A DNA stretch of 64,000 nucleotides from Waterburya sp. (GCA_965217895.1 CBDCJV010000002.1:544001-608000), one strand, 5' to 3'. Positions 2,224 to 48,409 are shown, numbered from the stretch's first letter. Notes: a model not told the origin generated them from the letters alone. Numbers and translations: made by a program.

Positions 2224-2359
2224 AAAAAGAGAGCCAGACAGAAAACGATTTTTCCTCACAACCTGCTCAAATTGTTATTGTAAGCTGCCATTGTCAAAGA
2301 AACTCAAGTTTAAAACGAATGAGCTTTTTTGAACTTCGCCAATCAAGGAGATAAAAGCA

Positions 2360-2875
2360 ATGTGGTGTCGAATTTGCAAATTTTTATCTAAGTTTATTTT
2401 GGCTGGTACATTAATCCTGCTTATTTTTCTAGGTTTAGATAATTTCACTACTCAACCAGCTTTAGCTTCGATCCGCGAAATGCAAGAAGCACCAGGACAA
2501 AAATTAATTCAATCTCGACATACTTTTAAAGACGAAAAAGGTATCTCTTGGCAGATAGTGCTATTCAAACGCTTCTTCGCCGATGATTCAAGCATTATTA
2601 ATTTGAGATTAGTAGATTTTTCTGGGTTAGCAGAGTTGGTTCACCCTCAAGCTTTAGAAATTACTACTGATACTAGGGATGTATTTAAGGCGGAGGACTT
2701 GTTTGCTGAAAAATCTCCTGCTGCCAATGTGGGCGAGTTTGATGTCAAAAACATCTTGTCTCAGTTGCCCATAACTAGATTGAATCTATCTTTTGCCATA
2801 AAAGATCGCTCGATTGAGCTATCAATTCCGCCTGAAGTGTTATTAGAGTGGCAAAGCGTCGCTGCTCAAAGCTAG
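2360..2875 (+). CDS. DUF3122-like exported cyanobacterial protein
   Basis: Signal peptide ending PALA, then EAPGQ..QSR...D..G.SWQ.VLFKR pattern; RBS AAGGAG. Confidence 0.7.
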   Translation: MWCRICKFLSKFILAGTLILLIFLGLDNFTTQPALASIREMQEAPGQKLIQSRHTFKDEKGISWQIVLFKRFFADDSSIINLRLVDFSGLAELVHPQALEITTDTRDVFKAEDLFAEKSPAANVGEFDVKNILSQLPITRLNLSFAIKDRSIELSIPPEVLLEWQSVAAQS

Positions 2876-2941
2876 CGGTTTTCTTGTCATTAGAATACTG
2901 AACCTTAAGTATTCTAATTATTACACTACCTTGACTCTACA

Positions 2942-5866
2942 ATGAATACAAAATACTTCCAAAATAAAAAATTATCGGAAAATTCTCGATCGGGAGTTTT
3001 CACCCAGGACTCTTTAGATCGACAATGGGAACGCCTGTCTGTGTCAGAGGTAGTTGCTGCTTTTAAAAGTAATTTAACCGCAGGACTAACCCAACCCGAA
3101 GTAGCCGAGCGTCAAGAACGTTTTGGTGCTAATCAATTAACTCCCCAAAAGAAGACCAGTGCTTGGATGCGATTTTTACAACAGTTTAATCAACCGTTGT
3201 TGTATATTTTAATCGGGGCGGGGCTAGTCACCCTATTACTGCAAGAGTGGGTGGATGCTGGAGTAATCTTTGGCGTTGTTTTAATTAATGCGATCGTCGG
3301 CTATATCCAAGAAGCTAAAGCAGAGAAGGCAATGGAAGCCCTGGCTAAGTCGATGGTAACTAAGACAAGAGTAATTCGCGATCGCACTTCTTCGCGACTA
3401 GCTTCGAGTTCACTCGTACCTGGAGATATTGTTTGCCTGGAAGCTGGAGATAAAGTGCCAGCCGATTTGCGGTTGCTTCAGTGCAAACATTTGCAAATCA
3501 ACGAGTCTACCCTCACAGGAGAATCTGTGCCAGTTGATAAAGATACTAAACCCCTAGAAGAAGAAACCTCCCTGGGCGATCGCCTTAATATGGCTTATGC
3601 GGGTACTATTGTCACCGCAGGGCAAGGACGGGGAATTGTAGTGGCGATCGCCGAAGCCACCGAAACGGGTAAAATCTCTACCCTCATGGAGCAACAAACC
3701 AACCTAACTTCTCCCATCGTGCGGAAATTAGAGAAGTTTAGCTGGCAACTGCTGTATGTTTTCCTCGGATTAGCCACACTAATTATTGTCGTCGGATTGG
3801 GGCAAGGAAAATCTTGGATAGAAATGTTTCAGACTGCCGTGGCTTTAGCGGTTAGTGGAATCCCCGAACAACTTCCCCCGTTAGTAACCATTATTCTTGC
3901 CATTGGGGTTTCTCGCATGGCTAGCCGTCATGCCATTGTTCGTAAACTGCCAGCCGTAGAAACCTTGGGGAGTGCCACAGTTATTTGCTCTGATAAAACG
4001 GGGACGCTCACCGAAAACCAAATGACCGTTGAGGCTATTTATGCAGGGGGTCAGCACTATCGAGTTACGGGGACAGGCTATAGCGTTGAGGGTGAAATTT
4101 TACAGGATAACCAGTCGATTGTGCTTGAAGCAGATCGAGGGCTAAGGTCGTGTTTGCAGTGCGGATTGCTGTGTAATGACTCTCATCTTAAAGAACATAA
4201 TGGGCAATTGACAGTTGAGGGAGATCCGACTGAGGGGGCAATGATTGTCGTTACCGAGAAAGCCCGAATGCACCGCGCTACTCTAGAACGGAAATTACCG
4301 CGAATAGATGTGATTCCCTTTGCCTCGGAACATCAGTATATGGCAACTCTTCATCAAAACCCAAGGGGAGGCAGAATCATTTACGTTAAAGGCTCTACTG
4401 AAGCCATTCTCAGTCGCTGCGATTTGGGCGAAGGTAATGGAAGATCTGCGGTTGAGGCGCAAGCGATTGAATCTATAGCCGAACAGATGGCTGGACGAGG
4501 ATTGCGGGTGCTAGCTTTAGCCAGAAAGTCCGTTGACTCTCAGCTTGATTCTTTATCACGAAAACAGATCGATTGCGGTTTAACTTTTTTAGGTTTGCAA
4601 GGAATGATCGACCCGCCTCGGCAAGAGGCTGTTCGGGCTGTAAAAGCCTGTCAGACTGCGGGAATTGGGGTCAAGATGATAACTGGCGACCATGCCGTAA
4701 CTGCTAGTGCGATCGCCCATATGCTGAACTTAAGCCAAGGAGAGATACAGGCACTCTCAGGCAAAAGCTTAGAGCAGATGAGCGATCAAGAATTAAACAA
4801 TGCTGTAGAAGACACTATGGTATTTGCAAGAGTCGCACCGAAGCAAAAACTGCGCTTAATTGAGACACTGCAAGCCAAAGGCGAAATTGTAGCGATGACG
4901 GGAGATGGAGTGAATGATGCTCCAGCCCTGAAACAAGCCGATATTGGCATCGCTATGGGCAAAAGTGGTACGGAAGTAGCCAAGGAAGCTGCTGATATTA
5001 TTTTAACCGATGACAATTTTGCTTCCATTGAAGCTGCGGTGGAAGAAGGGCGAACGGTTTATTTTAATCTGCGAAAGGCGATCGCTTTTGTTCTCCCAGT
5101 CAATGGAGGAGAGGCACTAACGATTTTAGCGGGGGTACTCTTAGGAACCGTACTGCCAATTTTGCCCCTGCAAATCCTCTGGATAAATATGGTCAGTTCC
5201 TCTTCTCTGTCAATTCCCTTAGCTTTTGAACCACAGCCAAAAAACCTAATGCGATCGCCACCCCGTCAGCCCAATGAACCCCTGCTTACGAGTAGTATAC
5301 TCTGGCGGATAGTGGTTATTTCCTTATTTAATTGGGCAGCTACCTTTGGCATATTTGAATGGGTAGTAGCGAGTACAGGAGAAGAAGCTCTCGCCCGTAC
5401 TATGGCGGTGCAAACTTTAGTAGCAGCAGAAATTTTTTATTTACTCTGTATCAGTCGCTTTATCCCTTCTCTCTTTGCCAAGATACGCGATCGACGAGAA
5501 GCGATACAGCGCGGTCTTGCGAGAAAGGACTTGTCCGCATCTGAGTCCGTTGTGGAGGTTCTCTCCGTTGAAGAAACTGTCGAGGGCGGGGGTTTCCCCC
5601 ATGAGCGACACAGAGGCTTCGCCTCAGAGCCTTCTGCGAAGGCGATGGCGCAAAAAAGCGCCGTTCAAGAATCATTCGCTTATGCCCCTGGAATCGGGAT
5701 TATCTGTATTGTAGTTTTACAAATACTCTTCAGCCAGTTATCCGTGATGAACGCTTTATTTGAAACTGTTCCCCTCAGTTTAACCCAATGGGTGATATGT
5801 CTGGGCGCAGGCTTACCTGTAGTGATTTTCGCCTTGCTGTTAAAACGCTTTAAGCCCCTAAGTTAA
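2942..5866 (+). CDS. Cation-transporting P-type ATPase (P2A-like) with a 57-aa repeat-derived insert
   Basis: TGES, DKTGTLT, GDPTE, MITGD and TGDGVNDAPAL motifs; insert at 5501-5671. Confidence 0.93.
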   Translation: MNTKYFQNKKLSENSRSGVFTQDSLDRQWERLSVSEVVAAFKSNLTAGLTQPEVAERQERFGANQLTPQKKTSAWMRFLQQFNQPLLYILIGAGLVTLLLQEWVDAGVIFGVVLINAIVGYIQEAKAEKAMEALAKSMVTKTRVIRDRTSSRLASSSLVPGDIVCLEAGDKVPADLRLLQCKHLQINESTLTGESVPVDKDTKPLEEETSLGDRLNMAYAGTIVTAGQGRGIVVAIAEATETGKISTLMEQQTNLTSPIVRKLEKFSWQLLYVFLGLATLIIVVGLGQGKSWIEMFQTAVALAVSGIPEQLPPLVTIILAIGVSRMASRHAIVRKLPAVETLGSATVICSDKTGTLTENQMTVEAIYAGGQHYRVTGTGYSVEGEILQDNQSIVLEADRGLRSCLQCGLLCNDSHLKEHNGQLTVEGDPTEGAMIVVTEKARMHRATLERKLPRIDVIPFASEHQYMATLHQNPRGGRIIYVKGSTEAILSRCDLGEGNGRSAVEAQAIESIAEQMAGRGLRVLALARKSVDSQLDSLSRKQIDCGLTFLGLQGMIDPPRQEAVRAVKACQTAGIGVKMITGDHAVTASAIAHMLNLSQGEIQALSGKSLEQMSDQELNNAVEDTMVFARVAPKQKLRLIETLQAKGEIVAMTGDGVNDAPALKQADIGIAMGKSGTEVAKEAADIILTDDNFASIEAAVEEGRTVYFNLRKAIAFVLPVNGGEALTILAGVLLGTVLPILPLQILWINMVSSSSLSIPLAFEPQPKNLMRSPPRQPNEPLLTSSILWRIVVISLFNWAATFGIFEWVVASTGEEALARTMAVQTLVAAEIFYLLCISRFIPSLFAKIRDRREAIQRGLARKDLSASESVVEVLSVEETVEGGGFPHERHRGFASEPSAKAMAQKSAVQESFAYAPGIGIICIVVLQILFSQLSVMNALFETVPLSLTQWVICLGAGLPVVIFALLLKRFKPLS
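5501..5671. repeat. Nested composite of small GC-rich hairpin repeats inserted in frame
   Basis: 171 bp flanked by duplicated AGAA; contains several hairpins and sub-elements that recur at 6952-7020, 19008-19100, 49926 and 53378. Confidence 0.8.
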
Positions 5867-6112
5867 ATTCACCTGTTTAGTTGCTTGTTGACAAAGTAAC
5901 TTGGCAAACCATCACACTGATAATAATAGACTTCTTGCAATTTTTGATACAAAAGAATAGTCACAAATTATCTCGATTGCCGTAGCGCAAAGCGTCCTAG
6001 TCCTAAAGAATCCCTAAAGGATACTATATCCGTAGGTGTATCCTTTAGGACACCTTCGGACACTAAACCTATGCGCATAAATAATAAATTAGTCTTTATT
6101 ACCTATTACCTT

Positions 6113-6388
6113 TTGGTGATAAGTTTAGAAAAAATGATTATAGTCAACTACTACATATAGTGACTTTAATTTTAGCAAACACCAAATATGGATTAAAGCC
6201 AATTTCATTGGCGATCGCCACGGTAGGAATTAGAGTTTATGAAAATACTTCAAAAGCTAAGAGCGCACAAAGCGGAGCTTTGAAAGCGTCGCTAGACGCG
6301 ACTTCGCCCCTTCAGGGCATGCAGCTGATAGCTAAGAGCTTTCATACCATTTGACAAACAACGTAGTCCCTTAACTTGTCACGAATGC
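6113..6388. mobile_element. MITE family A, copy 1
   Basis: Ends TTGGTGATAAGTTTAG ... CTTAACTTGTCACGAATGC; internally similar to the reverse complement of 12958-13208. Confidence 0.75.
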
Positions 6389-6518
6389 TTATTACCTTTT
6401 GGCAAAGTAGTCAGCGAGCGGATCTTTCCTCATAAATCCCTCAAATTTTTACCTTATTTTTAAGTTATGGCTAAATAACTAGCTTTCAAAATCAATTACA
6501 TTGAGGAGAAGAAAAAAT

Positions 6519-6842
6519 ATGCAAGTTCCCCTACAAATTACCTTTCGCAATCTTCCTCACTCAGATGCGATCGCCGATAAAATCAAGCGACAGTTTATCA
6601 AACTACAGCGTTTTAGCGATCGTATTATTAGATGTCAGGCGGTAGTAGAAATTCCTTATCACCATCATCATAAAGGGAATCCATATCACATCAGAATTAA
6701 TCTAACTTTGCCTGGTGAAGAATTGGTTGTTAATCAAGATGCTTCAGATAGATCTCCTGAAAATGCTTATATTGCAATTCGCGATGCTTTTAATGCTGCA
6801 CGGCGAGAATTAAAGGAATATAGTATGCTTCAAAAGCTCTAA
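6519..6842 (+). CDS. HPF/RaiA-family (sigma54 modulation) ribosome-associated protein, single domain
   Basis: MQVPLQITFRNLPHSDAI...HHHHKGNPYHIRINLTLPG..LVV...AIRDAF.AARR; GAGGAG RBS before the ATG at 6519. Confidence 0.8.
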   Translation: MQVPLQITFRNLPHSDAIADKIKRQFIKLQRFSDRIIRCQAVVEIPYHHHHKGNPYHIRINLTLPGEELVVNQDASDRSPENAYIAIRDAFNAARRELKEYSMLQKL

Positions 6843-6903
6843 TTTTCTTGGCTTTACACAATAGACTCCTGCTGGAGATATTTACAATTGACCAAAGGTT
6901 AGG

Positions 6904-7065
6904 CAAGCCCTGTATCACAACGCATTCCCTTGCGCCTATCGGCGACGCGGTGAGACAGTTGCGTTGCGGGGGGTCCCCCCGTTGAGGTTATTGTCGAGGG
7001 TGAGCAAACTGTTGAACCCTTTAGGGGGTCGTTGCTCCGTTTTACGGCGGAGAGCCCGACCTTTT
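6904..7065. repeat. Intergenic composite of GC-rich hairpin repeats
   Basis: GAGACAGTTGCGTTGCGGGGGGTCCCCCCGTTGAGG...GAGCAAACTGTT; homologous to 24819-24888. Confidence 0.75.
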
Positions 7066-7178
7066 CAGCAGAAATATTTTTTCATAAATAAATTTGTTTT
7101 GACCCCCAAATTTTAACTCCACAAACAACCATTATCAATTTGATGTCGGGTCTATACCTAAATTATGAGGTACTTAAA

Positions 7179-7571
7179 ATGGACTTTGAGAATGTTGTTC
7201 TCAACAATCATGATTTTGATATTCAAACTTTCTCTCTAGAGAACTCGAATACGAAAATAGCGATCGATACAGAATCAAAAGTTGTTCTTCCTTCAGTAAA
7301 TCAACCTGTCAGCTCTATTGATATCTTTTTTATCTGGATCGCTATTCTTAGCATAACTAGCTCGTTCTTGTATGAACTTATTAAAAAGCTAGAAATAATA
7401 GAAATCAAAGATAAATTTGTCTCCCCTTCTTTCCAAACTCCTTGTAGAAACTGTCAGTTCTATGATAGAAACCCATACCTTAAATGTGCAGTGCATCCAA
7501 ATCGAGTTTTTACTAAACAAGCTATTAATTGTGTTGACTACTGCAATAAAGACCAACACTACAAGTCTTAG
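7179..7571 (+). CDS. Membrane-anchored cyanobacterial protein with C-terminal Cys cluster
   Basis: One TM helix then PCRNCQFY...YLKCAVHP...C.DY; ATG at 7179 preceded by GAGG. Confidence 0.6.
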   Translation: MDFENVVLNNHDFDIQTFSLENSNTKIAIDTESKVVLPSVNQPVSSIDIFFIWIAILSITSSFLYELIKKLEIIEIKDKFVSPSFQTPCRNCQFYDRNPYLKCAVHPNRVFTKQAINCVDYCNKDQHYKS

Positions 7572-7976
7572 ATTAAAGGTCTGAAATAGTTTTTAGCCTT
7601 TAGCTGCCAATTAGATAATAATGTTGATGATTAAATAGATTTTTTTGATAATTGTTGCTCTATCAGTGTTGTCAGCGCATTTGGCAACTCTTTAACCCTC
7701 AAACGATCAATCTTTCATGAAAGATTGAAATAATAGCCGATCTTAATTTAATCGGTATCAATACGAGATTTATAAAGGTTGATGTGCTGAAGGCGATCGA
7801 CAGATCGAGCTATAACCCCAAATTATTTAGGCTTCATAACTTCCTCAAATTATAAATCTATGGTTTTAAGTGAAGGATTAATTATTAATTGTTTCGACAA
7901 ATATAACAATAAAGGAGTTTTAACGATGCGTCGATTAATATCAATTATTTTAAAGACTAAATCACCAACGCTTTAA

Positions 7977-9521: not shown

Positions 9522-9746
9522 CGCTCGAGGAAAAACTGGGTACACCAACTGACTATTAGTTACCGTCGCTCTAGGTTTAAACACATGCGGGGAGTACCCC
9601 TTTGTTGCCCTTCAAAGGCGACTTTACGTTAGCTGTTAGCCTTCAATTAAAAACCTGCGTAGCTATAAACCAACTGCTTTGCGCCACATCCGAAGGTAAG
9701 CTAAGAGCTAATAGCTAAGAGCTAATAGCTTGAATCACCGATCCTT

Positions 9747-10310
9747 TTAGGGCGGTGAGGAGTCAATCCGACTTTTAATCACTTTACCAGGACTGACAAA
9801 AGAAATTCCTTGTTGATAACCACTACCAATCATAACTGCCTCAATTATAGGTTCGCTCACGGTTGTTTGGGCGACCCACTCGACAATAAATTTGGCTCCC
9901 GAACCGCCACTGTTATCAGTGGTATTGACAAAAAAATCTGTAGAACCTAAAGCAGCAATCTCAATAGGATTCTCTAGATAATTTCTAACTAACTTACCGT
10001 TCTCGTCATAATATCGTACAGAAGTAATAACGATCGCCTTGTTAAGATCGGTATTGCGAAGACTGAGAGTAGCAGCTAAATCGAAAGTCTTTTTTTCATC
10101 CTGATGATAAATGTGGGAGTAGACGGTGACATAAATAGTTTGTCCCATTGCTACTTGGAAATTTTCATCCAAAGCAATTATTTTTTGAGACTGATTTAGG
10201 CGATCGCCATTATCTCGTAACTGCGATGGATTCTCTTCTGGGGTGCAGGATATAAGTAAAAAAGCAGCAACTACCAAATTTAAAAGTCTACATAACTTCA
10301 TCTTAATCAT
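9747..10310 (-). CDS. DUF3124-family lipoprotein
   Basis: Lipobox LISC; GQTIYV.VYSHIY, LSLRNTD, GGSGAKFIVEW and PIIEAVMIG motifs. Confidence 0.85.
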   Translation of the reverse strand: MIKMKLCRLLNLVVAAFLLISCTPEENPSQLRDNGDRLNQSQKIIALDENFQVAMGQTIYVTVYSHIYHQDEKKTFDLAATLSLRNTDLNKAIVITSVRYYDENGKLVRNYLENPIEIAALGSTDFFVNTTDNSGGSGAKFIVEWVAQTTVSEPIIEAVMIGSGYQQGISFVSPGKVIKSRIDSSPP

Positions 10311-10312
10311 TT

Positions 10313-10984: not shown

Positions 10985-11041
10985 AGTTGTTTAATTTGTC
11001 GAACATCTTAATTTCTTTGAGCTACTGCGCGAGAATCATCT

Positions 11042-11626: not shown

Positions 11627-11829
11627 CTTAATTACCTCACTTAAATATATATATATGCCAGCAATTTGAGGAACTTATGAGGAAAATTTTTCTATAAAAG
11701 ATCTGCTCTTTCCAAGTCGCTAAGGGAAATAAATTTTGCTTTGGCGAATTTGCCAATCTAATACCCTTACTCAATTTGCTAATGCTGCTCATGTAGTTGA
11801 AGCCATCGAAGAGTTTAGTGATTAAACAT

Positions 11830-12300
11830 TTAAATACCGTTCGATGTTTTTGAATTATCTTTGTTATCTGAATTGATTGGTAATATTTCTGGCTGAATTA
11901 AGCTTTGCCAATCGAGCTTTATTTCAACCCCAGTTTGGTTGAATATATATGTACTGTTGCTACGATAGCTAACACCGCGATACTTTAGCTCATAATTCGG
12001 CTGAGATATTAGATTCACATTTTGGTCTTGTTGGTTGGAAGGTAAACCTCGATTTTCTCTCGACCAGATAGAATTATTTTCCTGATTCGACTTTGCTGGC
12101 TGTTTTTTTTTTCTTCGACAACGTTCTAAAAACCGAACTAAATCGTATTGGTAACAACTTTCTAAATGTTCAATTTTATATATACGCCAAAACTCAAACG
12201 GGTTAACAATAGTTACGCAAGTAGAGTTGGAAAATATTTGTCTGAAATATTTCTGCATTGGAAATTTTATTGCCGTTTTACCTTCTTCTCTAGCTTTCAT
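11830..12300 (-). CDS. Hypothetical protein with DUF4278-like LKYRGVSY motif
   Basis: 156-aa ORF with the LKYRGVSY motif seen in small cyanobacterial proteins. Confidence 0.5.
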   Translation of the reverse strand: MKAREEGKTAIKFPMQKYFRQIFSNSTCVTIVNPFEFWRIYKIEHLESCYQYDLVRFLERCRRKKKQPAKSNQENNSIWSRENRGLPSNQQDQNVNLISQPNYELKYRGVSYRSNSTYIFNQTGVEIKLDWQSLIQPEILPINSDNKDNSKTSNGI

Positions 12301-12442
12301 CAGAAAAGTTTCCTTAATAATTATTACTTTAAGACTAGGTAAACAAGTTGAGGAACTTATGAGAAAAAGCTAACTAAAATTGTAAATAGCTATTAATTTG
12401 TAGCTACATATTAGTTTTCTCAACCTCAAAACAGAGTAAAAA

Positions 12443-12910: not shown

Positions 12911-12957
12911 TTGATTTGGCGTTGCACCATGATGGGATGGTGAAGTAATAGGTGATA

Positions 12958-13208: not shown

Positions 13209-13312
13209 TATTACCTCAACAAATTAATGTGGTCTATCCAATCGAAAACTGCTGTAAATACCGTTAATAGAATCATTTTCCTGGTATTGAAGAACTTATG
13301 AGCAAATCTTTC

Positions 13313-22172: not shown

Positions 22173-22371
22173 ATTAATTTCCTCTAGTTTTAGTCGAGTT
22201 TCTGATAAAACCCGTTAAAATAATTTTTGCGATCGCCTGAGTTACCTTACTTAATATATGTAGGAGAATAATTTGAAGAACTTATGAGGAAACTCGATCT
22301 TTTCTCCTCACTCCATATTCAAACGATCGATCGATAAATTTGTGAAGGGTGAATTAAAAAAGCAATAATTT

Positions 22372-24998: not shown

Positions 24999-26858
24999 AT
25001 GAGACTTTTATTAGTAGACGATGACGAGGTGTTAGTAGATGCCCTTGCTAACCATCTCATCAAGCAGCGATATGCGGTAGACATTGCCTCAGATGGTGAG
25101 GAAGCGTGGGAATATATTGCACTTTTTAACTACGACCTAATCGTCTTAGATGTCATGCTACCAAAACTTGACGGTATTAGTTTGTGTGAAAAACTTCGCA
25201 ATCATAGTCATGGGATGCCCGTGCTGATGTTAACGGCTTGCGATCGCAGTACTGATATTGTTAAAGGGTTAAATGCTGGGGCTGATGATTACTTAGTTAA
25301 GCCATTTAATTTCGACGAGCTTACTGCCAGGATCCACGCTTTGCTGCGCCGAGAAGGTCAAAGTCTACCATCTATCTTGAAACGAGGCAGTTTAAGTCTT
25401 AATCCCAATAACTTAGAAGTAATTTATAACGAGAAACTGCTTAATTTGACAGCAAAGGAATATGCTTTGGTAGAGCTTTTTCTACGCAGTCCAAATCGGG
25501 TTTTTACTACTGAGGGAATTATTGAAAGCCTGTGGACGTTTGAAGACCCACCGACTGAGGGCGCAGTCAGAACTCACATCAAAACTCTACGACAAAAGCT
25601 AAAAACTGCTGGAGCAGCTAAAGATTTTATTGAGACGATTTACGGAGTGGGTTATCGCCTCAAGCCACTGCCTAATGAAGAACAAACTGAGATATCTGCA
25701 TCTAATTCCGAAGTACAATCGGACACGACTGCCGATCTTGCTCATCTTTGGGAACAATATAAAGATGCCATGTCCGATCGCCTAATTATCTTAGAGGATA
25801 CGGCGATTGCTTTACAAACAGATAATTTCAATTCTGCATTGAAACAGGAATCTAGGTTAGCAGCTCACAAATTAGCAGGTTCTCTAGGTAGTTTGGGGTT
25901 TGACGATGGCTCGAAGCTAGCGAGAGAATTAGAAATTTTACTTAATCTGGAAACTTTCCCCCAGCTAGACCAAATTGAGCCTTTCGAGCGGTTAGTCAAC
26001 ACTTTGAGAGCGAGACTAGAAGATCACCAGCCTGACTCTAGTTCGACTTTAGAAAGTTATCCCTTGTTATTAATTGTGGATGATGACCGCGATTTTACTC
26101 AAGAGTTAGAGATAGAAGCAGCAGCTAATAATTTCCGAACTGCGATCGCTAGTACTGCATTGCAAGCACAAGAGATAATTAGGCGCGATCGCCCTGCTAT
26201 CGTTTTACTCAAAATATTTCAGATCAAAACTGACGCTACCCCAAATAACTGTCCGATGGATAGTTTAGATTTACTAGCAGAACTTCAGCAGCAAATGCCT
26301 TCACTACCCATTGTGGTAATTCTCTCAGAGACAGCTCTGTTTAACACCAGTGAAGATTTTACCAACCGTCTGAAAATTATCCGCCGTGCAGAACACACTT
26401 TGTTAGTACAGCCTGTAACCCCACATCAAGCAATGGATGCTGTAACTCAAACTCTGCAAAGATCTGGGGCGGGAATAAAAATAACAGTTGTCGATGACGA
26501 TCCGTCAATTTTAAAGTCGATGCAAACAAGTCTCGAAGCCTGGGGATTTGAGATTACTACTCTTAATGACCCCCATCAGTTTTGGCAGGTTATTCAAACT
26601 ACTTCTCCCAATTTGTTGGTGTTAGATATAGAGATGCCCGACGTTAGTGGAATTGAGCTGTGTCATGCTTTACGAAGTGACCCAGATTGGAGTCATTTAC
26701 CCGTGCTGTTTCTCACTGCTTATCAAGACTTAGCAACTCAGGAAAGGGCTTTTGCCATAGGTGCAGATGATTATGTTAGTAAACCGATTAGGGGACAAGA
26801 ATTAGTTACCCGCATCCTCAATCGCCTGTCACGAATCCGCGCAATTCAAAGTAGGTAG
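24999..26858 (+). CDS. Multidomain response regulator REC-OmpR wHTH-HPt-pseudoREC-REC (RcaC/RfpB-like architecture)
   Basis: LDVMLP receiver; VRTHIKTLRQKL and IETIYGVGYRL wHTH; AHKLAGSLG HPt; middle REC lacks Asp (LLKIF); LDIEMP receiver. Confidence 0.9.
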   Translation: MRLLLVDDDEVLVDALANHLIKQRYAVDIASDGEEAWEYIALFNYDLIVLDVMLPKLDGISLCEKLRNHSHGMPVLMLTACDRSTDIVKGLNAGADDYLVKPFNFDELTARIHALLRREGQSLPSILKRGSLSLNPNNLEVIYNEKLLNLTAKEYALVELFLRSPNRVFTTEGIIESLWTFEDPPTEGAVRTHIKTLRQKLKTAGAAKDFIETIYGVGYRLKPLPNEEQTEISASNSEVQSDTTADLAHLWEQYKDAMSDRLIILEDTAIALQTDNFNSALKQESRLAAHKLAGSLGSLGFDDGSKLARELEILLNLETFPQLDQIEPFERLVNTLRARLEDHQPDSSSTLESYPLLLIVDDDRDFTQELEIEAAANNFRTAIASTALQAQEIIRRDRPAIVLLKIFQIKTDATPNNCPMDSLDLLAELQQQMPSLPIVVILSETALFNTSEDFTNRLKIIRRAEHTLLVQPVTPHQAMDAVTQTLQRSGAGIKITVVDDDPSILKSMQTSLEAWGFEITTLNDPHQFWQVIQTTSPNLLVLDIEMPDVSGIELCHALRSDPDWSHLPVLFLTAYQDLATQERAFAIGADDYVSKPIRGQELVTRILNRLSRIRAIQSR

Positions 26859-30038: not shown

Positions 30039-30206
30039 AAGTTGTATTTCATAAATAATTTATCGTTGGTTCATGTAAATGTCTGTAAGGAATTTATGAG
30101 AACTCTAAAAATATTCGAGCCTTATCATTCTTGAGCAGGGTAAAGACACTATGGGTAATAACTGTAAGACAACACGAGAAAGCTTTTTATCAAGCCTGAT
30201 GCTGTT

Positions 30207-36936: not shown

Positions 36937-37065
36937 AATAATTTGTCTCCAAAAGGCTTTGAAACCTATTAACGATCCAGAATAAAAGAAGAATATGAGC
37001 AAGTTATGAGGAAAAAACATATGTACTGCTCTCCTCCTTTCATTTTGAATAAACTATTTTCCAAA

Positions 37066-37098: not shown

Positions 37099-37182
37099 GG
37101 TATTCACAATCATACTTTTTTTCTCAACAATTATGAGAAGAGCGTTACCATTTGAAACAATTCCCAATTTAGAGGTGAATAT

Positions 37183-37986: not shown

Positions 37987-38069
37987 AAAAGTTTTGAATT
38001 GAGAGCTAATAAATTCAGATGGATTAATCACAGGTAAAATACAGCTAATTTTAAACAGAGAAGAAATAC

Positions 38070-40451: not shown

Positions 40452-40584
40452 ATGAGGTGGTCAAGAACTAAGCGAAGTTGTAAGCATTCCCACCATATAA
40501 TCAGTCAAATCTCGATCACGAATAACATCAGTGGTTTTTAAAGCGCGATCGCGTTTGGTCTAAATTTTGCACTTCGGTATTGAC

Positions 40585-40636
40585 TGAGCTTAAATTGTTG
40601 AATTGAGCATAACCTGCTTTTTTGAGCAGATCTTCA
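40585..40636. promoter_or_regulatory. Candidate autoregulatory SorC operator array
   Basis: TGAGC at 40585, 40604 and 40623 (19-bp period); the last forms TGAGCAGATCTTCA. Confidence 0.55.
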
Positions 40637-40698
40637 AACCTATGCCAAACCACATACAATATAGGATATTTACTAATAGATGTTAAATAGCAGAAAAT

Positions 40699-41655
40699 AT
40701 GTCAAAAACTCTTTCTGAGAAGCGCAGTCAAAAACTTGATTTGGCAGCCCGCGCAGCTTGGCTCTACTACATCGCAGGCGATACTCAAGAAGACATTGCT
40801 ACTAAACTTAATGTCTCACGACAAGCAGCTCAACGATTAGTCGCTCTGGCAGTCAGTGAAAAGCTAATTAAATTTCGACTAGACCATCCCCTTAGTAATT
40901 GCATTGCTTTAGCTGAAGCACTGCGGAATAAGTTTGAACTGTCTACCTGTGAAGTAGTGCCAAGTAGTGCAGATGGTTCGCGTAACGGTCTAGCTGTATG
41001 CACCGCAGCTCACCTAGAGACATATCTAATAGCAAAAGCCCCTAATATTATGGCATTTTCTTCTGGTCGAACATTACGAGCAATGGTCGAGCAAATTCCC
41101 TCTATGAATCAGCCTCAACATAAGATTGTTTCGATCGTTGGCAACATGGCTCACTATGGTCGTGCAGGTCGCCATGAGGTAGTTATGCACCTTAGCGAAG
41201 TTACTGGTGCAGAAGCTTATCCAGTACCGACTCCAGTGATAGCCACCAATGTTAAAGAACGCAAACTACTGCAAACACAACAATCGTTTATCACCGTCGA
41301 ATCTTTAGTCGATCGGGCGAAAGTCACCTTTGTCGGCATTGGTGATATTGGTTGGAATGCCCCACTTCATGAAAGTGGCTTTATTAATGATAAAGAGATT
41401 ACCGAACTTATGGAATTAGGTGCTGTTGGAGAAGTCGCGGGGTGGGCATACGACAAACAAGGTACGTTATTAAAAGAGGGTACTAATACCAGAATTGCGG
41501 GGGTTTCCCTCGAACAGCCAGTTCAGCGACTGACGATTGGAGTTGCTGGCGGTTTGCACAAAAAAGAAGCCGTGCTGGCTGCGCTAACAGGCAGGTTGAT
41601 TAATGGATTAATTACAGATGAAGCAGTGGCTGAATCAATTCTTCAGATGGCATAA
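40699..41655 (+). CDS. SorC/DeoR-family sugar-binding transcriptional regulator (SmoC-like)
   Basis: AARAAWLYY..G.TQ..IA..L.VSR HTH, sugar-binding domain, LITDE. Confidence 0.92.
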   Translation: MSKTLSEKRSQKLDLAARAAWLYYIAGDTQEDIATKLNVSRQAAQRLVALAVSEKLIKFRLDHPLSNCIALAEALRNKFELSTCEVVPSSADGSRNGLAVCTAAHLETYLIAKAPNIMAFSSGRTLRAMVEQIPSMNQPQHKIVSIVGNMAHYGRAGRHEVVMHLSEVTGAEAYPVPTPVIATNVKERKLLQTQQSFITVESLVDRAKVTFVGIGDIGWNAPLHESGFINDKEITELMELGAVGEVAGWAYDKQGTLLKEGTNTRIAGVSLEQPVQRLTIGVAGGLHKKEAVLAALTGRLINGLITDEAVAESILQMA

Positions 41656-41716
41656 GCGCCTATTTAACATTGAACGGCGTAGAATCAAGAACAATTAAAT
41701 TTTACAAGATCTACCC

Positions 41717-42990
41717 CTAAGTAGACAAAAACTGAAGAGATTGAAGAAAATCAGCTTGAGATTCATCTAAGTTTAAGAAAATAGAGCGCAAATGATCGAA
41801 GCCATAACGGAAAGTGCTTTTTACCTTTCGTCCATGTTTTTTAATCACAATCGGTTTGTGGTTAGATAACCATTGACCTGTTCGATATGCTCAACACAAA
41901 GCAATAGTGAGCAAAGCAAATAGGCGACTCAAACGCTCTGAATCGTTTAAATGGGTATCTTCCAAATTTAATCCTCGACTTTTAAAGATGCCAAAAAGAG
42001 TTTCGATACCCCAACGTTGCGTATAATCATCAATCAGAGTATGACAATAATTTGGAGCAACAACAGTCAGTAGAGAATTATCCTGTAAACGTATAGCTCC
42101 AATGTAAACTTGATGACCCCATAAAATTCGTTTTCTTTTGAGCAATAATTTCTGTCCAATCTGAAGATAGGAAAAAACAATCTTGGTTGAAAGTTGATGT
42201 TTTCCATCCCCTAGCAGTTCTGTCTCTCGGACTCTAATTCTAAATGAAATCAATGCTGTGAGAATAAATATTCCAGCCATTGATGACCTAAGAACTCGCG
42301 GTCGGCACTCAAATAAGCAATTTGATGTTCGCAGAATAGTTCAACAAATTCTTTTAATAAATCAATCCGCTCGTTGATATGGGAATTTCCCTTCTTATCT
42401 AAGTGGGTGGGTAAAATTAAATGTAAAACAAGCGTAAGCAAGATATTACGATCTATTTTCGTTACTCATTACTCGTTACTCGTTACTCGTTACTCACTGC
42501 TGAAACTATCTTCTAATTAATTTGTCCTACTTACTTAGCATCCACCCTAACAGTGGAAAAGCTACACCTTGATAAATAATACCCAGAGTCAGAATATTGA
42601 ATACCTTTCGATCAAACTGCCACTCAGTTCTGTCAAGACTCAATACCCACGGTTCAGGTATTTCCATCATATCGATGACTAACTTCGCCATGCTGTAGTA
42701 ATCTAAGTCAAATTCTCTCAGAAACCGTTGCAGTCTTTTGTAACTTGATTCTGTTTTCGCTTTACTCTTAAATCCGATTGACAAGTCTACAAGGTTTACT
42801 GTCTTAACTCTAAACAAGGCGCTCAGAAATAGCGCGAGGAAACTCAATCTTGCTTCATGCCATTTTAAGTGGGGTTTCAAGGTTTTTCGGAGCAAGTTAA
42901 TATTATTATCTATGAGATCTTCATGAGTTTAGTGTGATTACTTTTCATGAAACCCTTTTTCTGCTTCCTTTTCAACTTTTGTCTACTAAG
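41717..42990 (-). mobile_element. Degenerate IS4-family element
   Basis: Imperfect 20-bp TIRs CTAAGTAGACAAAAACTGAA / TTCAACTTTTGTCTACTAAG; DDE fragments (LDRTEW, ADREF, RWGIETLF..FKSRG) broken by a MITE, a frameshift and a TGA. Confidence 0.88.
42402..42535. mobile_element. 134-bp IS630-type MITE with TA duplication inside the IS4 transposase
   Basis: TA at 42400-42401 and 42536-42537; ends AGTGGGTGGGTAAAATTAA / TTAATTTGTCCTACTTACT; removal restores WML-DKKGNS; internal (CGTTACT)n. Confidence 0.82.
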
Positions 42991-43001
42991 ATAGGTAATA
43001 A

Positions 43002-43222
43002 GCATTGGTGACAAGTTAAAAAAAGCAGAATCAAATCAAGCACTACAGGTAGTGTTTTACTAATTTGGTGACATTGTATACTAAGTTGAAGTTGATTTCA
43101 AAGCGATGTCTTCGACTAGCTTCGTAATCGCGCTAAAAAAGAGGAGCAACTTTAAAATGACTGAAAAGCTAAGAGCTAAAAACTAGTTGACAAACAACAC
43201 AAACCCTTAACTTGTCACGATT
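43002..43222. mobile_element. MITE family A, copy 3 (diverged)
   Basis: GCATTGGTGACAAGTTAA ... CTTAACTTGTCACGATT. Confidence 0.7.
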
Positions 43223-43267
43223 AGGTAATAGGTAATAAAATTTTCACGATTCACTTAAGATTGCTAT

Positions 43268-46200
43268 ATGTCGTTAGAAAAACTCTTAATTCAGCCATTC
43301 GTTCTCGAACGGGTAATCGATCGCAACCCGCCGATAGTGACGACTGAGACAACAGTTTCAGAGGCGATCTCCCTGATGAGCCAAATTCGGCATCAAAGCT
43401 GTATCGGGGCTAGTTGTGAGCTTGAAAATGTGACTGACGCTTCAGATTTATCTTCAAATGTGCGGGCAAGCTCTAGTTACCTTCTGGTACTAGAGGCAGA
43501 GAAGCTAATCGGAATTTTTACCGAGCGAGATTTAGTTAAATTAGCAGCTTCGGAGTACGATTGTTCGGCGATTAAAATTACCGAAGTTATGACCGATTCA
43601 GTTATTACTTTGCCCCAGTCAGAAATTCGCGATATTTTTTACGTACTAGGTTATTTTCGTCGGCATCATATTCGTCATTTACCCATTTTGGACGAGGAAA
43701 ATAGTCTACTGGGAGTTATTACTACGGGCAGTCTACGTAAAGCTTTGCAGCCCCATAATTTTTTGCGATTGAGACAGGTAGCAGACGTAATGGCTACTGA
43801 AGTAGTGACGGCATCGGCTAATGATTCAGTGCTGAGTTTAGCCCGATTAATGAGCGATCGCCAGGTTAGCTGCGTAGTGATTACAGAAGCGATTGAAAAT
43901 GGATCGGGAGAAATTTTGGCAACTCCCGTGGGCATCATTACCGAAGGGGATATCGTTCAATTTCAAGCTCTCAATTTGGATCTGAGAAAAATCCAGGCAG
44001 AAACGGTGATGAGCTTCCCGCTTTTTCCCGTCAAGCCTTTAGATGCTCTGTGGCAAGCTAATCTACAGATGCAGCAGTACCGTGTCCGACGCTTGGTAGT
44101 TACGGGGGAACAAGGAGAACTGGTAGGGATTGTCACCCAAACCAGTCTGCTGCAAATTCTCGATCCTCTAGAGATGTTACAGGAATTAGAGGATTTACAG
44201 GAGATTAAAGATAAGCAAACCCTACAGCTAAAACAGACCAATCGGCAACTACAAAATGAGATTGTCGAGCGAAAACGGTTAGAGGATGCCCTGCAAGAAG
44301 CTAATCGAGCTTTAACTACACAAGTAGATCGCCAAACTAGCGAACTGGGAGCAACTAAAGAAGTTCTACAACAGGAGACTGAAACCCGCCAGCGATCGCA
44401 AACACAAGGTGATCGCTTTTTTGACCTTTCTTTAGACTTATTTTGCATGGCTGGGGTTGACGGTTACTTTAAGCAAATCAACCCAGCGATGGAGCAACTT
44501 CTTGGTTTTAGCAGAGCGGAATTACTAGCTAAACCTTATCTTGACTTCGTGCATCCAGGCGATCGAGCAGCTACCACCGCCGAAGCTACCAAACTTACTC
44601 AAGGTATACATACAGTTAGCTTTGAAAATCGTTATCTTTGTCAAAATGGTTCATATAAATGGTTGCTTTGGACGGCTACTTTTGCTGCTGAGGAGCAGCT
44701 TATGTATGGCTCAGGCAAAGATATTACCGAGCGAAAATTGACAGAAGCGGAATCACAACGTCAATCTCGGCAATCGCAACTAATTTCGGAAATAACCCTT
44801 AAAATCCGTCAGTCATTGAATTTAAAAGAGATTTTACGCCTGGCTGTTACCGAAATTCAGAAGATTTTACAGGCAGATCGGGTTTTAGTTTTTCAACTAC
44901 ATCCTGACGGTTTTGGTAAAGCTATAGAAGAAGCTGTAGTTCCAGGCTATCCGACTGTTTTAGGACGGAATCTTTTCGACCCCTGTTTTCAAGATGGATA
45001 TGCAGCACAGTATCGTCAGGGCAGGATTGGCGCGATCGCCGATATCGAACGAGCAAACATTCAGCCTTGTTATATAAAATTTCTCCAGCAGTTTGCGATC
45101 AAAGCTAATCTTGTCGTGCCAATTCTCCAGCAGTCGCAGCTTTGGGGGTTACTAATCGTGCATCAGTGCGATCGCCCCCGTCACTGGCAAACTTTTGAGA
45201 TCGATTTGCTGAGACAACTAGCAAACCAGATTAGTATTGCTATCTCTCAGGCGGAACTACTAAATAGTCTAGAAGAAAAGGTAGCAGTACGAACATTTGA
45301 ATTAGAACAGGCAAATAAACGGCTTAAGCTCACTCAATTTTCCATTGATCGCAGTGCGGAAATAATCGCTTGGGTTAGTCCTGATGCTGAGATAATTTAT
45401 ATCAACGACTCGGCTTGTGAGATCTTAGGCTATAGTCGCGATCGACTCTTGAGTTTAAACATTGCTGAAATTGTTCCCGCTTTTTCAGCAGCAGCTTGGA
45501 TAAAACATTGGCAGCAGTTGAGAGATCGAGGCTCGCTACAGTTGGAAACTTCTTTGCAAACTAAAGATGGTCGTGTTATTCCTATTGAAGCTATTACAGA
45601 ATATCTCCAGGTAGAAGATCGAGAATATAACTGTATTTTTGCTCGCGATATTAGTCAACGTAAGCAGACTGAATCGGCACTGCAGCAGAGCGAAAAACGC
45701 TTCAAAGCTCTAGTGGCTAACGTTCCTGGTGCAATATACCGCTTTATTAATGACGACAATTATACAATGAAATTTATTGACGATGAAATTACCACAATTT
45801 CTGGTTATCCTGCTGCCGATTTTCTCCAAAACCAACGAACTCCTCTCAGCATTATTTACACTGAAGATCGCGAACGAGTTGCCCAAGAACTTCAAGCAGC
45901 GATCGCCCAAAAAAGAGACTATACTATCGAACATCGCATTGTACGTTCAGATGGAGCAATTAGCTGGGTAAAAAGCAAAGGACAGGGAGTTTATGACGAA
46001 GAAGATCGGCTTCTTTGGCTTGACGGAATTCTTTTAGACATCAACGAACGCAAATGGGCAGAAACTTTGCAACGGGTGCAAAATCGAGCTTTAAGTATGC
46101 TGGCAGAAGGAGGAACACTATACGATGTCTTACTAGAACTGACCGAACAAATCAATCGATTATCTCCAGGCTTAAATTCAACCATTATGATGATGGAGAA

Positions 46201-47608
46201 TGATAACAAGCATTTAAGTTCTTATATTAACTCTCAAATGCCCCAAGATTATGTTGAGGCGATCAATCGTTTACCCATTGGGGCAAAAGTTGGTTCTTGC
46301 GGTACGGCTGCATATTTGGGTCAGCGCGTGATAGTTAGTAATATTGCCGCCGATCCTTTGTGGACAGAATACAAACATTTAATTTTAGCCTACGGTTTCC
46401 AAGCCTGTTGGTCAGAACCAATTAAATCGGAGACGGGTAGAGTTTTGGGAACTTTTGGTCTGTATTTTACCGAACCGCGATCGCCTTCAGCCCAAGAACT
46501 AGAAATAATCGAAGCCTGTGCTAGCTTAGCTTCTGTTGCCATTACTCGCAAACAATCTGAGGCTACATTAAGAGATAGCGAAGCACAGCTTCGTTTAATT
46601 ACAGATGCCTTACCAGCCTTGATTTCTTATATCGATAATCGACAGTGCTATCAATTTGTCAACAAGACTTATGAAGAATGGCATCGACTAACTCGTACCG
46701 AAATTATTGGCAGTCATATTAAAGAACTTCTAGGGGAAGTAAATTACCAGCAAATTCAACAGTATGTAGAATCAGCCCTGTCAGGCGAGACTTTGACCTA
46801 TGAAAGTGAAATTCTTTTAGATCGTCAAGTGCGTCATTTCAGTGCTACTTATATTCCCGATCTAGATCGCAATGGAACAGTAAAAGGACTTGTTGCTTTA
46901 GTTAGCGATATAAGCGATCTTAAAGCGATCTCACAAATGAAGGACGAGTTTATTTCCGTAGTCAGTCATGAATTACGCACTCCTCTAACCTCTATTTATG
47001 GTGCTTTGAAACTGCTTGTAACTAGTCCTCAAAGTGGGTTAGAAGAAGAAGATCGAGAAATGCTGAATATTGCCGTAACCAACACAGAACGTTTAATACG
47101 TCTAGTAAACGATGTGCTAGACCTAGAACGAATTGAGTCTGGCAAAATTAAAATGAACAAACAGTCTTGTAATACTGCCGATTTAGTTCGCCAAGCTATT
47201 GAAGTTATGCTTCCAATGGCTCATGCTCAAGACGTTACTTTAGTGGCAGAACCCTGTCCTATAGCAATTAACGCCGATCCCGACCACATACACCAAACTT
47301 TAACTAACCTCCTTAGCAATGCCATAAAATTTTCTCCGTCCCACAGTTCCGTTTGGCTCACAGTTGACGAGCGAGAAAGCGAAACTCTGTTTAAGGTTAG
47401 CGATCGCGGACGCGGAATTCCCTCAGACAAATTAGAGCATATTTTTGAACGTTTTCAACAGGTAAATGCTTCAGATTCGCGAGACAAAGGAGGCACTGGT
47501 TTGGGATTAGCCATCTGCTATAAAATCATCGAGGAACACGATGGTCGCATTTGGGCTGAGAGTAAGCTTAATCAAGGAAGCACGTTTTGTTTTACCATAC
47601 CGAAGTAA
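43268..47608 (+). CDS. Sensor histidine kinase CBS(x4)-PAS-GAF(DXCF cyanobacteriochrome)-PAS-PAS-GAF-PAS-HisKA-HATPase
   Basis: GIFTERD and GIITEGD CBS motifs; GAF ADRVLV..DPCF..YRQGRI..PCY..LWGLLIVHQC..PRHW; SHELRTPL; NLLSNAIKF; GTGLGL. Confidence 0.92.
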   Translation: MSLEKLLIQPFVLERVIDRNPPIVTTETTVSEAISLMSQIRHQSCIGASCELENVTDASDLSSNVRASSSYLLVLEAEKLIGIFTERDLVKLAASEYDCSAIKITEVMTDSVITLPQSEIRDIFYVLGYFRRHHIRHLPILDEENSLLGVITTGSLRKALQPHNFLRLRQVADVMATEVVTASANDSVLSLARLMSDRQVSCVVITEAIENGSGEILATPVGIITEGDIVQFQALNLDLRKIQAETVMSFPLFPVKPLDALWQANLQMQQYRVRRLVVTGEQGELVGIVTQTSLLQILDPLEMLQELEDLQEIKDKQTLQLKQTNRQLQNEIVERKRLEDALQEANRALTTQVDRQTSELGATKEVLQQETETRQRSQTQGDRFFDLSLDLFCMAGVDGYFKQINPAMEQLLGFSRAELLAKPYLDFVHPGDRAATTAEATKLTQGIHTVSFENRYLCQNGSYKWLLWTATFAAEEQLMYGSGKDITERKLTEAESQRQSRQSQLISEITLKIRQSLNLKEILRLAVTEIQKILQADRVLVFQLHPDGFGKAIEEAVVPGYPTVLGRNLFDPCFQDGYAAQYRQGRIGAIADIERANIQPCYIKFLQQFAIKANLVVPILQQSQLWGLLIVHQCDRPRHWQTFEIDLLRQLANQISIAISQAELLNSLEEKVAVRTFELEQANKRLKLTQFSIDRSAEIIAWVSPDAEIIYINDSACEILGYSRDRLLSLNIAEIVPAFSAAAWIKHWQQLRDRGSLQLETSLQTKDGRVIPIEAITEYLQVEDREYNCIFARDISQRKQTESALQQSEKRFKALVANVPGAIYRFINDDNYTMKFIDDEITTISGYPAADFLQNQRTPLSIIYTEDRERVAQELQAAIAQKRDYTIEHRIVRSDGAISWVKSKGQGVYDEEDRLLWLDGILLDINERKWAETLQRVQNRALSMLAEGGTLYDVLLELTEQINRLSPGLNSTIMMMENDNKHLSSYINSQMPQDYVEAINRLPIGAKVGSCGTAAYLGQRVIVSNIAADPLWTEYKHLILAYGFQACWSEPIKSETGRVLGTFGLYFTEPRSPSAQELEIIEACASLASVAITRKQSEATLRDSEAQLRLITDALPALISYIDNRQCYQFVNKTYEEWHRLTRTEIIGSHIKELLGEVNYQQIQQYVESALSGETLTYESEILLDRQVRHFSATYIPDLDRNGTVKGLVALVSDISDLKAISQMKDEFISVVSHELRTPLTSIYGALKLLVTSPQSGLEEEDREMLNIAVTNTERLIRLVNDVLDLERIESGKIKMNKQSCNTADLVRQAIEVMLPMAHAQDVTLVAEPCPIAINADPDHIHQTLTNLLSNAIKFSPSHSSVWLTVDERESETLFKVSDRGRGIPSDKLEHIFERFQQVNASDSRDKGGTGLGLAICYKIIEEHDGRIWAESKLNQGSTFCFTIPK

Positions 47609-47751
47609 CTCAGAATTGCTAGAAAAGGTAATAGGTAATAGGTAATAAGATTGAATAAATCTTTATAAACCTCCTGCCTCCTGCCTACATGCGGCTAAAG
47701 CCTTTGTGCCTTCACACAACTTTCAAATGGTGTATCTAAACAGGATTTAGT

Positions 47752-48123
47752 ATGATTTCCAAACGCATCTTACTTATAGACGATGAGCCATCTATCTTAG
47801 CAGTAGCTCGCATCGGTTTAAAGCGTGCGGGATGGTTAGTGTTGACTGCTAATTCGGGACAAGAAGGTATTGCCAAAGCCGAAACCGAACTGCCAGATGC
47901 GATCGTTTTGGATGTAATGATGCCAGAAATGGATGGCTTGGCAACTCTCAAACAGCTACAGGATAATCCTCAAGTTCAACATATCCCAGTAATTTTTCTG
48001 ACTGCCAAAGCCCAACAATCCGATCGTCGTAACTTTTATGCTTCTGGCATTAAAGGATTTATTACCAAACCTTTCGACCCTACTACCCTAGCAAGCCAAA
48101 TTTCTGGTTTTCTTAGCTGGTAG
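47752..48123 (+). CDS. Single-domain CheY-like receiver (RcaF/RfpC-like position)
   Basis: IDDE, LDVMMP, FLTAK and TKPF all intact. Confidence 0.92.
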   Translation: MISKRILLIDDEPSILAVARIGLKRAGWLVLTANSGQEGIAKAETELPDAIVLDVMMPEMDGLATLKQLQDNPQVQHIPVIFLTAKAQQSDRRNFYASGIKGFITKPFDPTTLASQISGFLSW

Positions 48124-48409
48124 CAAGTATCGCTTCGCATAAGTAATAGATAATAAGATCGAATATAGTCATGTCTTTATAGAAACCAGATGAATTTAAA
48201 GGTAATAATAAATCTCGATAAATCTTCTGCCTTCTGCCTCCTGCCCTCTGCCTTTGCCCAAGTTTTAAATGGTGTATCTCAACAGAATTTAACATCACCT
48301 CATAAGTAGCTCATATTTCTCGATTAATATTATTTATTCAGATTAATTGCAAATTTAATTACTAGCAAATTACTCATTATCTGCTGCTTATTTGCATTAG
48401 AGGAAAATA

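Follow-up and report, generated by a model that had tools for sequence, protein, structure and literature searches.

A direct-repeat promoter box of Waterburya sp. and other cyanobacteria, the probable site of RcaC-like regulators of fermentation and dormancy genes

In a 64,000-nucleotide (nt) stretch of Waterburya sp. DNA (GCA_965217895.1 CBDCJV010000002.1:544001-608000, hereafter the window; positions are counted from its first letter, and those on the whole contig are marked C2), nine copies of a 16-nt direct-repeat box lie ahead of genes. Our data identify this box as a real, widespread and apparently undescribed activator site. It is probably the site through which RcaC-like regulators carrying an AVRTHIK helix activate genes of fermentation and dormancy, and RegA, the member of this family encoded in the window, likely reads the local copies, which mostly have T at box position 6. 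We report here how the motif is built and spaced, which genes it precedes, how closely it co-occurs with the regulator family and how its sites divide into T and C variants, together with the relay through which the regulators may act.

The box and its distance to the -10 hexamer

The consensus of the box is YYTCAYAASTTCYTCA, followed by an 11-nt spacer and by TAnnnT. YYTCA occupies positions 1-5 and 12-16, with a repeat period of 11 bp, and its TCA was invariant in 24/24 training sites. A matrix built from the nine window sites gave 35 matches at a score of at least 16.5 in the 5.29-Mb genome, a raw count that is weak when taken alone, as 20 column-permuted matrices gave 1-26. The distribution of the held-out sites was also analysed: 13 of the 25 fell inside the flanks at C2:500-690 kb, where 0.6 were expected. 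In addition, TA stood at spacer 11 in 16 of the 18 intergenic held-out sites (two of the 18 overlap a 71-amino-acid open reading frame (ORF) call, treated as spurious) compared with none of the seven inside long ORFs.

A 33-nt model comprising box, spacer and -10, built on 24 sites and used with a strong-site threshold of at least 20, detected 27 strong sites in the genome, clustered at C2:514-539 kb, in the window, at 617-624 kb and at 674-679 kb, plus four singles. The regulon had been drawn by the first-pass annotation as confined to 46 kb; with 27 strong sites in this genome and further ones in many cyanobacterial families, that limit does not hold. The same annotation had read the box as an OmpR/PhoB-type activator site replacing the -35, and two features of such a site, the 11-bp direct repeat and the fixed place before the -10, were found. 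All together these data leave little doubt that the box is a promoter element.

Similar results were obtained in other genomes. With the box-only matrix from the nine window sites, 68 sites were found in loci of nine other genomes or plasmids; TA stood at spacer 11 in 63 of them and TAnnnT in 50, any other spacer reaching at most 16, a comparison that is partly circular in that 46 of the 68 came from loci picked around matches of a TA-requiring pattern. Two plasmid regions picked by regulator homology, not by motif, showed TA at spacer 11 in 20/22 sites. The strict pattern was present in 15/18 genus relatives and in 63/301 phylum genomes. The Stanieria plasmid pSTA7437.01, which is not independent of the 61-genome family survey described below, has 15 boxes in the 100 kb analysed, none of them outside 165-216 kb, and Acaryochloris pREB4 has 21 in 100 kb, against 0.03 per 50 kb for the permuted control. 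One strong box, ahead of a seven-gene run, was found in the 60-110 kb segment of pCC7120beta, and the Nodularia supplementary data examined contained none of the motif strings.

As for transcription start sites, expected about 24 nt after the box, two coverage-based starts of Acaryochloris lie 13 and 18 nt downstream of the predicted position, and that of a third gene lies upstream of the box. The start site of hoxW in Nostoc 7120 has a -10 TAGCTT and no -35 (PMC2670836), an arrangement that would fit the box architecture.

Specifically, in the window all nine 16-mers listed by the first-pass annotation, and the weaker copy ahead of sus, are present on the coding strand of the downstream gene. 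Its rule of a -10 exactly 11 nt after the box applies to eight of the nine, which have TA there; it fails for the imperfect box before glcP-oprB (30086..30101, - strand), which reads ATGAAC, lacks a -10 at spacer 11 and is doubtful. A C-box, with C at position 6 and -10 TAAGCT, precedes DUF3122 and a P-type cation ATPase (2254..2286, +). T-boxes precede an HPF/S30EA-family gene (6428..6460, +, -10 TATTTT), a Na+/H+ exchanger (7832..7864, +, TATGGT), the universal stress protein (USP) gene run USP1-TrkA-DUF3124 (11650..11682, -, TATATA) and a 156-amino-acid gene with a weak DUF4278 match (12332..12364, -, TAGTCT). The protein of the latter (gene 11830-12300) has paralogues at C2:514917-515387 and 678795-679268, 34-36% identical and each box-led.

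Further T-boxes lie before USP2 and a HlyD/ABC-2/MarC/MscS run (22257..22289, -, TACATA), before a polyol ABC/mannitol dehydrogenase operon whose true start codon is downstream of the box (36979..37011, -, TATTCT) and before a pseudo-receiver gene (48298..48330, +, TAATAT). The USP2 and polyol boxes are conserved in genome G014 and the pseudo-receiver box, with its gene, in three other islands carrying RegA. An extra box without a -10 at spacer 11 (13288..13303, -) is probably a relic. The sus copy (22306..22321, +), proposed as a site, scores 5.2 on the 16-nt model, a value equalled by 863 genome positions; it is at chance level and was excluded from the site count. No box was found in RegA's own promoter.

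RcaC-like regulators and the T/C split

Among 18 genes of the genome encoding OmpR-family winged helix-turn-helix (wHTH) proteins, two are of about 610 amino acids: RegA in the window (24999..26858, +; 619 amino acids, Rec-wHTH-Hpt-Rec(degenerate)-Rec, helix EGAVRTHIKTLR), the likely T-box reader, and RegB (C2:4809562). They are 59% identical over their first 225 residues and both have AVRTHIK. The wHTH domain of RegA matches PhoB structures, and the best NCBIfam match of residues 1-222 is RppA, above the cut-off. In a quick tree the RegA and RegB clades were supported at 99 each.

The helix was searched as a back-translated pattern over the 301 genomes also scanned for the box. The box was present in 33/33 genomes with AVRTHIK and in 30/268 without it; within the class the figures were 33/33 and 22/103. 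Fourteen of the 30 box-positive genomes without the helix had a single match, and the reversed control pattern gave one match each in 11 genomes. From the listed positions, a box lies at most about 3.5 kb from the regulator in 12 of the 33 genomes, and a USP gene with a box ahead of it is often transcribed divergently from the regulator at Nostocales-type loci. A search for related loci returned a match to a cyanobacterial-type regulator in 11/33 loci, the others being distant. In conclusion, these sequence comparisons indicate that the box is very probably read by the AVRTHIK family of RcaC-like regulators.

In the Planktothrix-type regulators (L107-L111) the helix is AVRAHIKG or TVRAHIKG, and a single conserved C-box is found at about 3.5 kb from each of them.

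The sites fall into two variants, which follow the residue after HIK. The 22 closest relatives of RegA all have Thr196 at this place (22/22), and the other 52 proteins returned have Gly; residue 196 lies where PhoB has the base-reading (guanine) Arg201. In a survey of 61 family genomes, T-boxes number 9-19 in each of the six that have an intact Thr-type regulator (79/146 boxes) and 0-5 in each of 54 others (55/655 boxes). The seventh Thr-type genome, G355, has one T-box and has lost the island; its RegA orthologue (L187, G355:C1:2808678-2809987) is frameshifted and lies beside a kinase fragment and an insertion sequence. In this genome T is found in 11/12 strong sites at 525.8-592.3 kb vs 2/15 elsewhere, and around RegA orthologues its share is 14/15 on the Stanieria plasmid, 11/11 in G008, 9/9 in G014 and 11/12 in G338.

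The pairing of Thr with T and of Gly with C is a hypothesis of preference, with exceptions. The first-pass annotation had named a single local activator, most plausibly the one at 24999-26858. That gene is a good candidate reader of the window copies, most of which it would be expected to serve, and in this respect the proposal stands; the paralogue RegB likely reads the C-variant sites, and a single activator is probably not enough.

A third RcaC-like paralogue (L085, G003:C71:2610-8732), with helix TVTAHIKDLR in G003 and G009, lies about 5 kb from a single T-like box, which in G003 precedes a DUF1816 gene; the spacing is similar in G007, G009, G013 and G016. This paralogue accounts for some stray T-boxes.

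Targets, sensor kinases and the proposed relay

The regulon is centred on fermentation, hydrogenase and USP genes. In this genome the strong sites lie mostly ahead of USP, Hsp20, ppsA-ldh-xfp-ackA and transport genes. Specifically, in the left flank ppsA, three USPs, ldh, xfp, pgm and ackA form one co-directional, box-led run; other flank targets are P-type ATPases, Hsp20s, DUF4327 and an AAA_33 protein, and a phosphoribosyltransferase is found elsewhere. In other families the targets include pyruvate:ferredoxin oxidoreductase (PFOR, nifJ), pyruvate formate-lyase (pfl), HoxU, a HoxF-like protein, phosphoenolpyruvate (PEP) synthase (ppsA), Pfk and a DHOD-like protein. PFOR, pyruvate formate-lyase and hydrogenase are oxygen-labile enzymes. 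Hydrogenase-protease-like targets were read from sequence, annotation confirming them only in Acaryochloris. The targets on pSTA7437.01 are ppsA-ldh, Hsp20, USP, petC-psbA and a Ca-ATPase, and those on pREB4 are hyp/hox, ppsA, an alternative ATP synthase, glgP and USPs. The USP, Hsp20, fermentation and transport set of a DosR/Lxa-type hypoxia regulon is present among the box targets, like gene kinds being held by the DosR, Anr and Lxa regulons (PMC12071387).

Three observations concern single target genes. Downstream of a box-led Hsp20 lies a divergent, D1-like psbA in two out-of-frame pieces (L004:12326-13398; C2:618326-619398, -). A petC-psbA pair is itself box-led on the Stanieria plasmid. 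The box-led PEP synthase at L223:8970-12587 (G067) has 1205 amino acids, with about 390 extra internal residues that are possibly an intein.

The kinase adjacent to RegB (C2:4812206) and the fused Nostocales-type regulators contain a PAS domain whose best matches, by PDB sequence and by fold, are FixL and DosP (PDB sequence E 1e-22 to 1e-27; FixL and DosP as Foldseek top matches). The proximal His on helix F is present in 9/9 aligned domains; of 30 loci examined for it, 27 have it and three are off-pattern. The MGER loop is strongly conserved. A His at the proximal position is reported to be the main haem-binding determinant of this PAS cluster (PMC10468136). The FixL-type PAS lies in the same ORF as the regulator, or at most 5.4 kb away, in 26/33 regulator genomes; a further 27 genomes, in which the AVRTHIK pattern is absent, have the domain as well. 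On balance, these domain matches suggest that the widespread, haem-PAS form senses oxygen.

The window kinase (43268..47608, +; CBS x4-PAS-GAF-PAS-PAS-GAF-PAS-HisKA-HATPase) has no FixL-type PAS, the sole one in the genome being at C2:4813841-4814260. The best PDB match of its first GAF is RcaE, with DPCF where RcaE has QEVF and with the second Cys present. DPCF together with a second Cys is the mark of two-cysteine cyanobacteriochromes, and the domain is accordingly cyanobacteriochrome-like; in the GAF of the RegB-system kinase both Cys are missing. The kinase of the window, that of the paralogue and that of Acaryochloris all begin with CBS domains. PDB and atlas searches indicated no ligand for the conserved second GAF.

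The C-terminal PAS-GAF-PAS-kinase half, the RcaF-like single receiver (47752..48123, +; 81-86% identical in three other RegA islands) and the box-led pseudo-receiver (48410..48796, +), which has Glu at the phospho-Asp position and is a predicted feedback element, recur in the three other RegA islands covered; wherever the whole kinase of an island with intact RegA was covered, the C-terminal half was present. The G014 sequence analysed stops within the kinase, whose CBS/GAF half is retained in that genome. A second copy of the C-terminal part (70%) and of the single receiver (81%) was observed at L010 (C2:1656764-1659193, -), with an unrelated N-terminus, HAD-phosphatase-like by eye, and a C-box 1.9 kb off on the opposite strand.

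This organization is compatible with a relay running from the kinase to the single receiver, the Hpt domain and the N-terminal receiver of the regulator. The phosphorylated regulator would bind the two YYTCA repeats head-to-tail in place of a -35 and would recruit sigma-70 RNA polymerase in the manner of PhoB. In its widespread form (Gly after HIK, C-boxes), with a fused or adjacent haem PAS, the system would fire as oxygen falls and induce nifJ, pfl, hox, ppsA and USP genes. The version in the window (Thr after HIK, T-boxes) is probably a mobile duplicate in which the kinase has been exchanged for one without the haem PAS, and the island genes under its control would be those for USP, HPF, ion and polyol transport and ppsA-ldh-xfp-ackA. 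Its input would most plausibly be light/dark through the two-cysteine GAF, or a signal to the conserved PAS-GAF-PAS module.

Taken as a whole, we propose only tentatively a dedicated oxygen-sensing switch for fermentation and dormancy, made of a FixL-type haem kinase and an RcaC-like regulator in many filamentous and baeocytous cyanobacteria, together with a plasmid-borne orthogonal duplicate (Gly to Thr, C to T, swapped sensor). If this is true, an acquired survival island runs beside the host circuit.

Several observations weigh against the reading given here. The genes nifJ, pfl and hox are absent from this genome. Sixteen genomes have at least two boxes yet lack the AVRTHIK pattern: the helix differs by one letter in G058 and G040, 11 belong to one genus of which one genome was checked (AVTAHIKG), G124 and G198 yielded no such regulator, and G216 was outside the check. 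No such regulator was found in G009 (93% complete), which has 19 C-boxes. In the family survey, G336, G361 and G362 have RegB orthologues with variant helices, G328-G330 being outside the check. The quick tree does not unite all AVRTH regulators in one clade. As for the sensors, 7/33 regulator genomes have no linked haem PAS (three have one elsewhere, four gave no match), and the CBS and two-cysteine GAF half of the window kinase is missing in three other RegA islands, on which ground CBS energy sensing or light sensing was rejected as a universal input. The window site at 2254 has C, one promoter with T in G014 has C in the present genome, and the Thr-type regulators form one clade, so that the association with T is a single evolutionary event.

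The expression data are of the same kind. After 7 days of illuminated microoxia in Acaryochloris, seven of the 11 box-led units with a listed gene fell, three rose and one was flat (PMC5295598 Table S3, rows from AM1_D0138 on, an RNA-seq table that lists changed genes only), and six of the seven also fell in hyperoxia (PMC5295598). The box-led units shifted together, yet not as low-oxygen-induced genes. The Acaryochloris box locus is without a haem PAS, which offers a reconciliation only after the fact. On pCC7120beta, the last four genes of the box-led run were 14-27x up in biofilm and the first three are unlisted (PMC13156569 supplement), a pattern that is ambiguous.

These results have to be weighed against other explanations. 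With the same box and regulators, the input may be a dark, low-energy or dense-culture signal received through CBS, GAF or other PAS domains, the FixL-like PAS being degenerate or bound to another ligand. This would agree with the Acaryochloris units moving together regardless of the direction of oxygen, with the CBS domains at the head of the window, paralogue and Acaryochloris kinases, and with the modest rises, in Anabaena 7120 biofilm, of genes that may be box-led (alr1912 3.8x, all1122 2.3x, alr3146-7 4-5x; PMC13156569 supplement). However, strong conservation of the proximal His and of the MGER loop speaks against it, and we consider a non-oxygen input somewhat unlikely; the targets, moreover, include PFOR, pyruvate formate-lyase and hydrogenase, which are oxygen-labile.

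It is unlikely, in turn, that there is one specificity only, both regulators reading both variants, with the whole set answering the haem-PAS kinase at C2:4812206 by cross-talk and the T bias being a founder effect. The kinase cores are 52% and the single receivers 61% identical, one C-box occurs within the T zone, two T-boxes occur beyond it, and all six intact Thr-type genomes also have a Gly-type regulator, as this explanation would allow. Nevertheless, in four distinct islands whose gene content differs, T-boxes stand at numerous promoters unrelated to one another, which descent from a single site cannot explain; Thr196 is invariant in all 22 close relatives, and the island's kinase core, receiver and pseudo-receiver travel with RegA. 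We regard it as likely, on sequence grounds, that the window copies are read mainly by RegA.

The remaining two explanations concern the identity of the regulator. A known or simpler one (CopR, ManR, SphR, RcaC, a 230-amino-acid RppA-type protein or the SorC/DeoR-type protein at 40699-41655) is very improbable and largely refuted by distribution. The half-sites do resemble CopR (TTTCAT) and ManR repeats, and RppA is the best NCBIfam match noted above; yet the L-box, CopR, ManR and pho motifs score far below the consensus (-2.3, 4.3, 2.9 and -4.1 vs 27.8), genomes such as G006, G021 and G032 have the short RppA-like paralogues but no box or only one, and no SorC-type gene is annotated in the Stanieria island.

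Least probable of all is the purely local regulon for sugar import and sucrose metabolism suggested by the first-pass annotation. It could appeal to the strong polyol ABC box, alone among the sugar-related sites in being kept both here and in G014, and to the imperfect glcP box. It has to be abandoned in view of the chance-level sus copy, the glcP box without a -10, the absence of both genes from the syntenic island of G014, where the USP2 box abuts the regulator gene, and the lack of any annotated sugar uptake gene in the Stanieria island. We retain the reading of the box as the probable site of RcaC-like AVRTHIK regulators.

Comparison with known systems and other features of the window

The proposed relay resembles RcaE-RcaF-RcaC, the system of type III chromatic acclimation, and RfpA-RfpC-RfpB, in which a kinase acts through a single receiver on a complex OmpR-type regulator (PMC5737509, PMC8256508, PMC4658448), and the layout Rec-wHTH-Hpt-Rec with an RcaF-like shuttle in the window is that of RcaC. 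Unlike in the RcaC system, the L-box has no match with at most one mismatch on contig C2, and there are no phycobiliprotein or bilin-synthesis genes among the annotated targets. The green/red GAF of RcaE differs at DPCF/QEVF, and the widespread form uses a FixL-type PAS.

With FixL-FixJ-FixK, Burkholderia Lxa and mycobacterial DosS-DosR the system shares the predicted haem-PAS kinase and USP, heat-shock, nitroreductase and ABC transporter targets (PMC12071387), and, with FixL/Lxa and DosR, the clustering of targets in one island. It departs from FixK in the OmpR-type wHTH on a direct repeat, instead of a CRP/FNR protein on TGAT-N6-ATCA (PMC12071387), and from DosR/Lxa in having no NarL- or CRP/FNR-type regulator on a palindrome. 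In contrast to FixL and DosR, the relay is multistep and often fused in one polypeptide, and its induction by low oxygen is a prediction.

In geometry the box is like the pho box of PhoB, in that an xxTCA unit recurs after 11 bp and the second unit ends 11 nt before the -10, with CCTCA instead of TGTCA, with Gly or Thr in place of Arg201 and with targets unrelated to phosphate except one pstB-like gene in G284. CopR-like and ManR-like sites exist separately in the genome and none is in the window; a ManR-like repeat lies at C2:842991 and a CopR-like repeat at C2:1851862, beside an OmpR-family gene.

Control of nifJ and hox under low oxygen is also exerted in Synechocystis by cyAbrB2/SigE and ChlR (PMC13421787), but there it works by derepression at the nucleoid or by a palindrome-binding MarR protein with an Fe-S cluster, and involves neither a phosphorelay nor a direct-repeat box. 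The parts covered of a 2026 review of cyanobacterial redox regulation name cyAbrB2/SigE and ChlR for microoxic control and do not mention RcaC (PMC13421787). No description of the box or of the regulator was found in the full-text literature searched, literal motif strings included, most subscription journals being outside the scope of the search.

The switch to fermentation and hydrogen metabolism without oxygen is known mainly from Synechocystis (PMC13421787); for Nostocales-type and Pleurocapsales-type strains our data name a candidate sensor, relay, activator, operator and target list. The system would provide inducible promoters and a means of controlling the expression of hydrogenase and PFOR, and Thr/T vs Gly/C would be a compact example, from nature, of how a regulator and its sites diverge after duplication.

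As regards the rest of the window, a SorC/DeoR-type sugar-binding regulator (40699-41655, +) lies near the polyol operon and is the likelier source of its sugar-specific control. The region 48842-63401 is plasmid-like, with an integrase, TacA/GNAT, MazE/Fic and PIN/HicB-type toxin-antitoxin pairs, AbiEii, a broken strawberry-notch helicase, dnaN and an IS630-type transposase. The insertion elements, the integrase at 48842, the plasmid-type genes beyond it and the orthologous module on a conjugative plasmid suggest an integrated mobile island. Outside the window, an ARAGORN tRNA-Ile(TAT) call at C2:634652-634737 lies inside a 2039-amino-acid ORF and is probably spurious.

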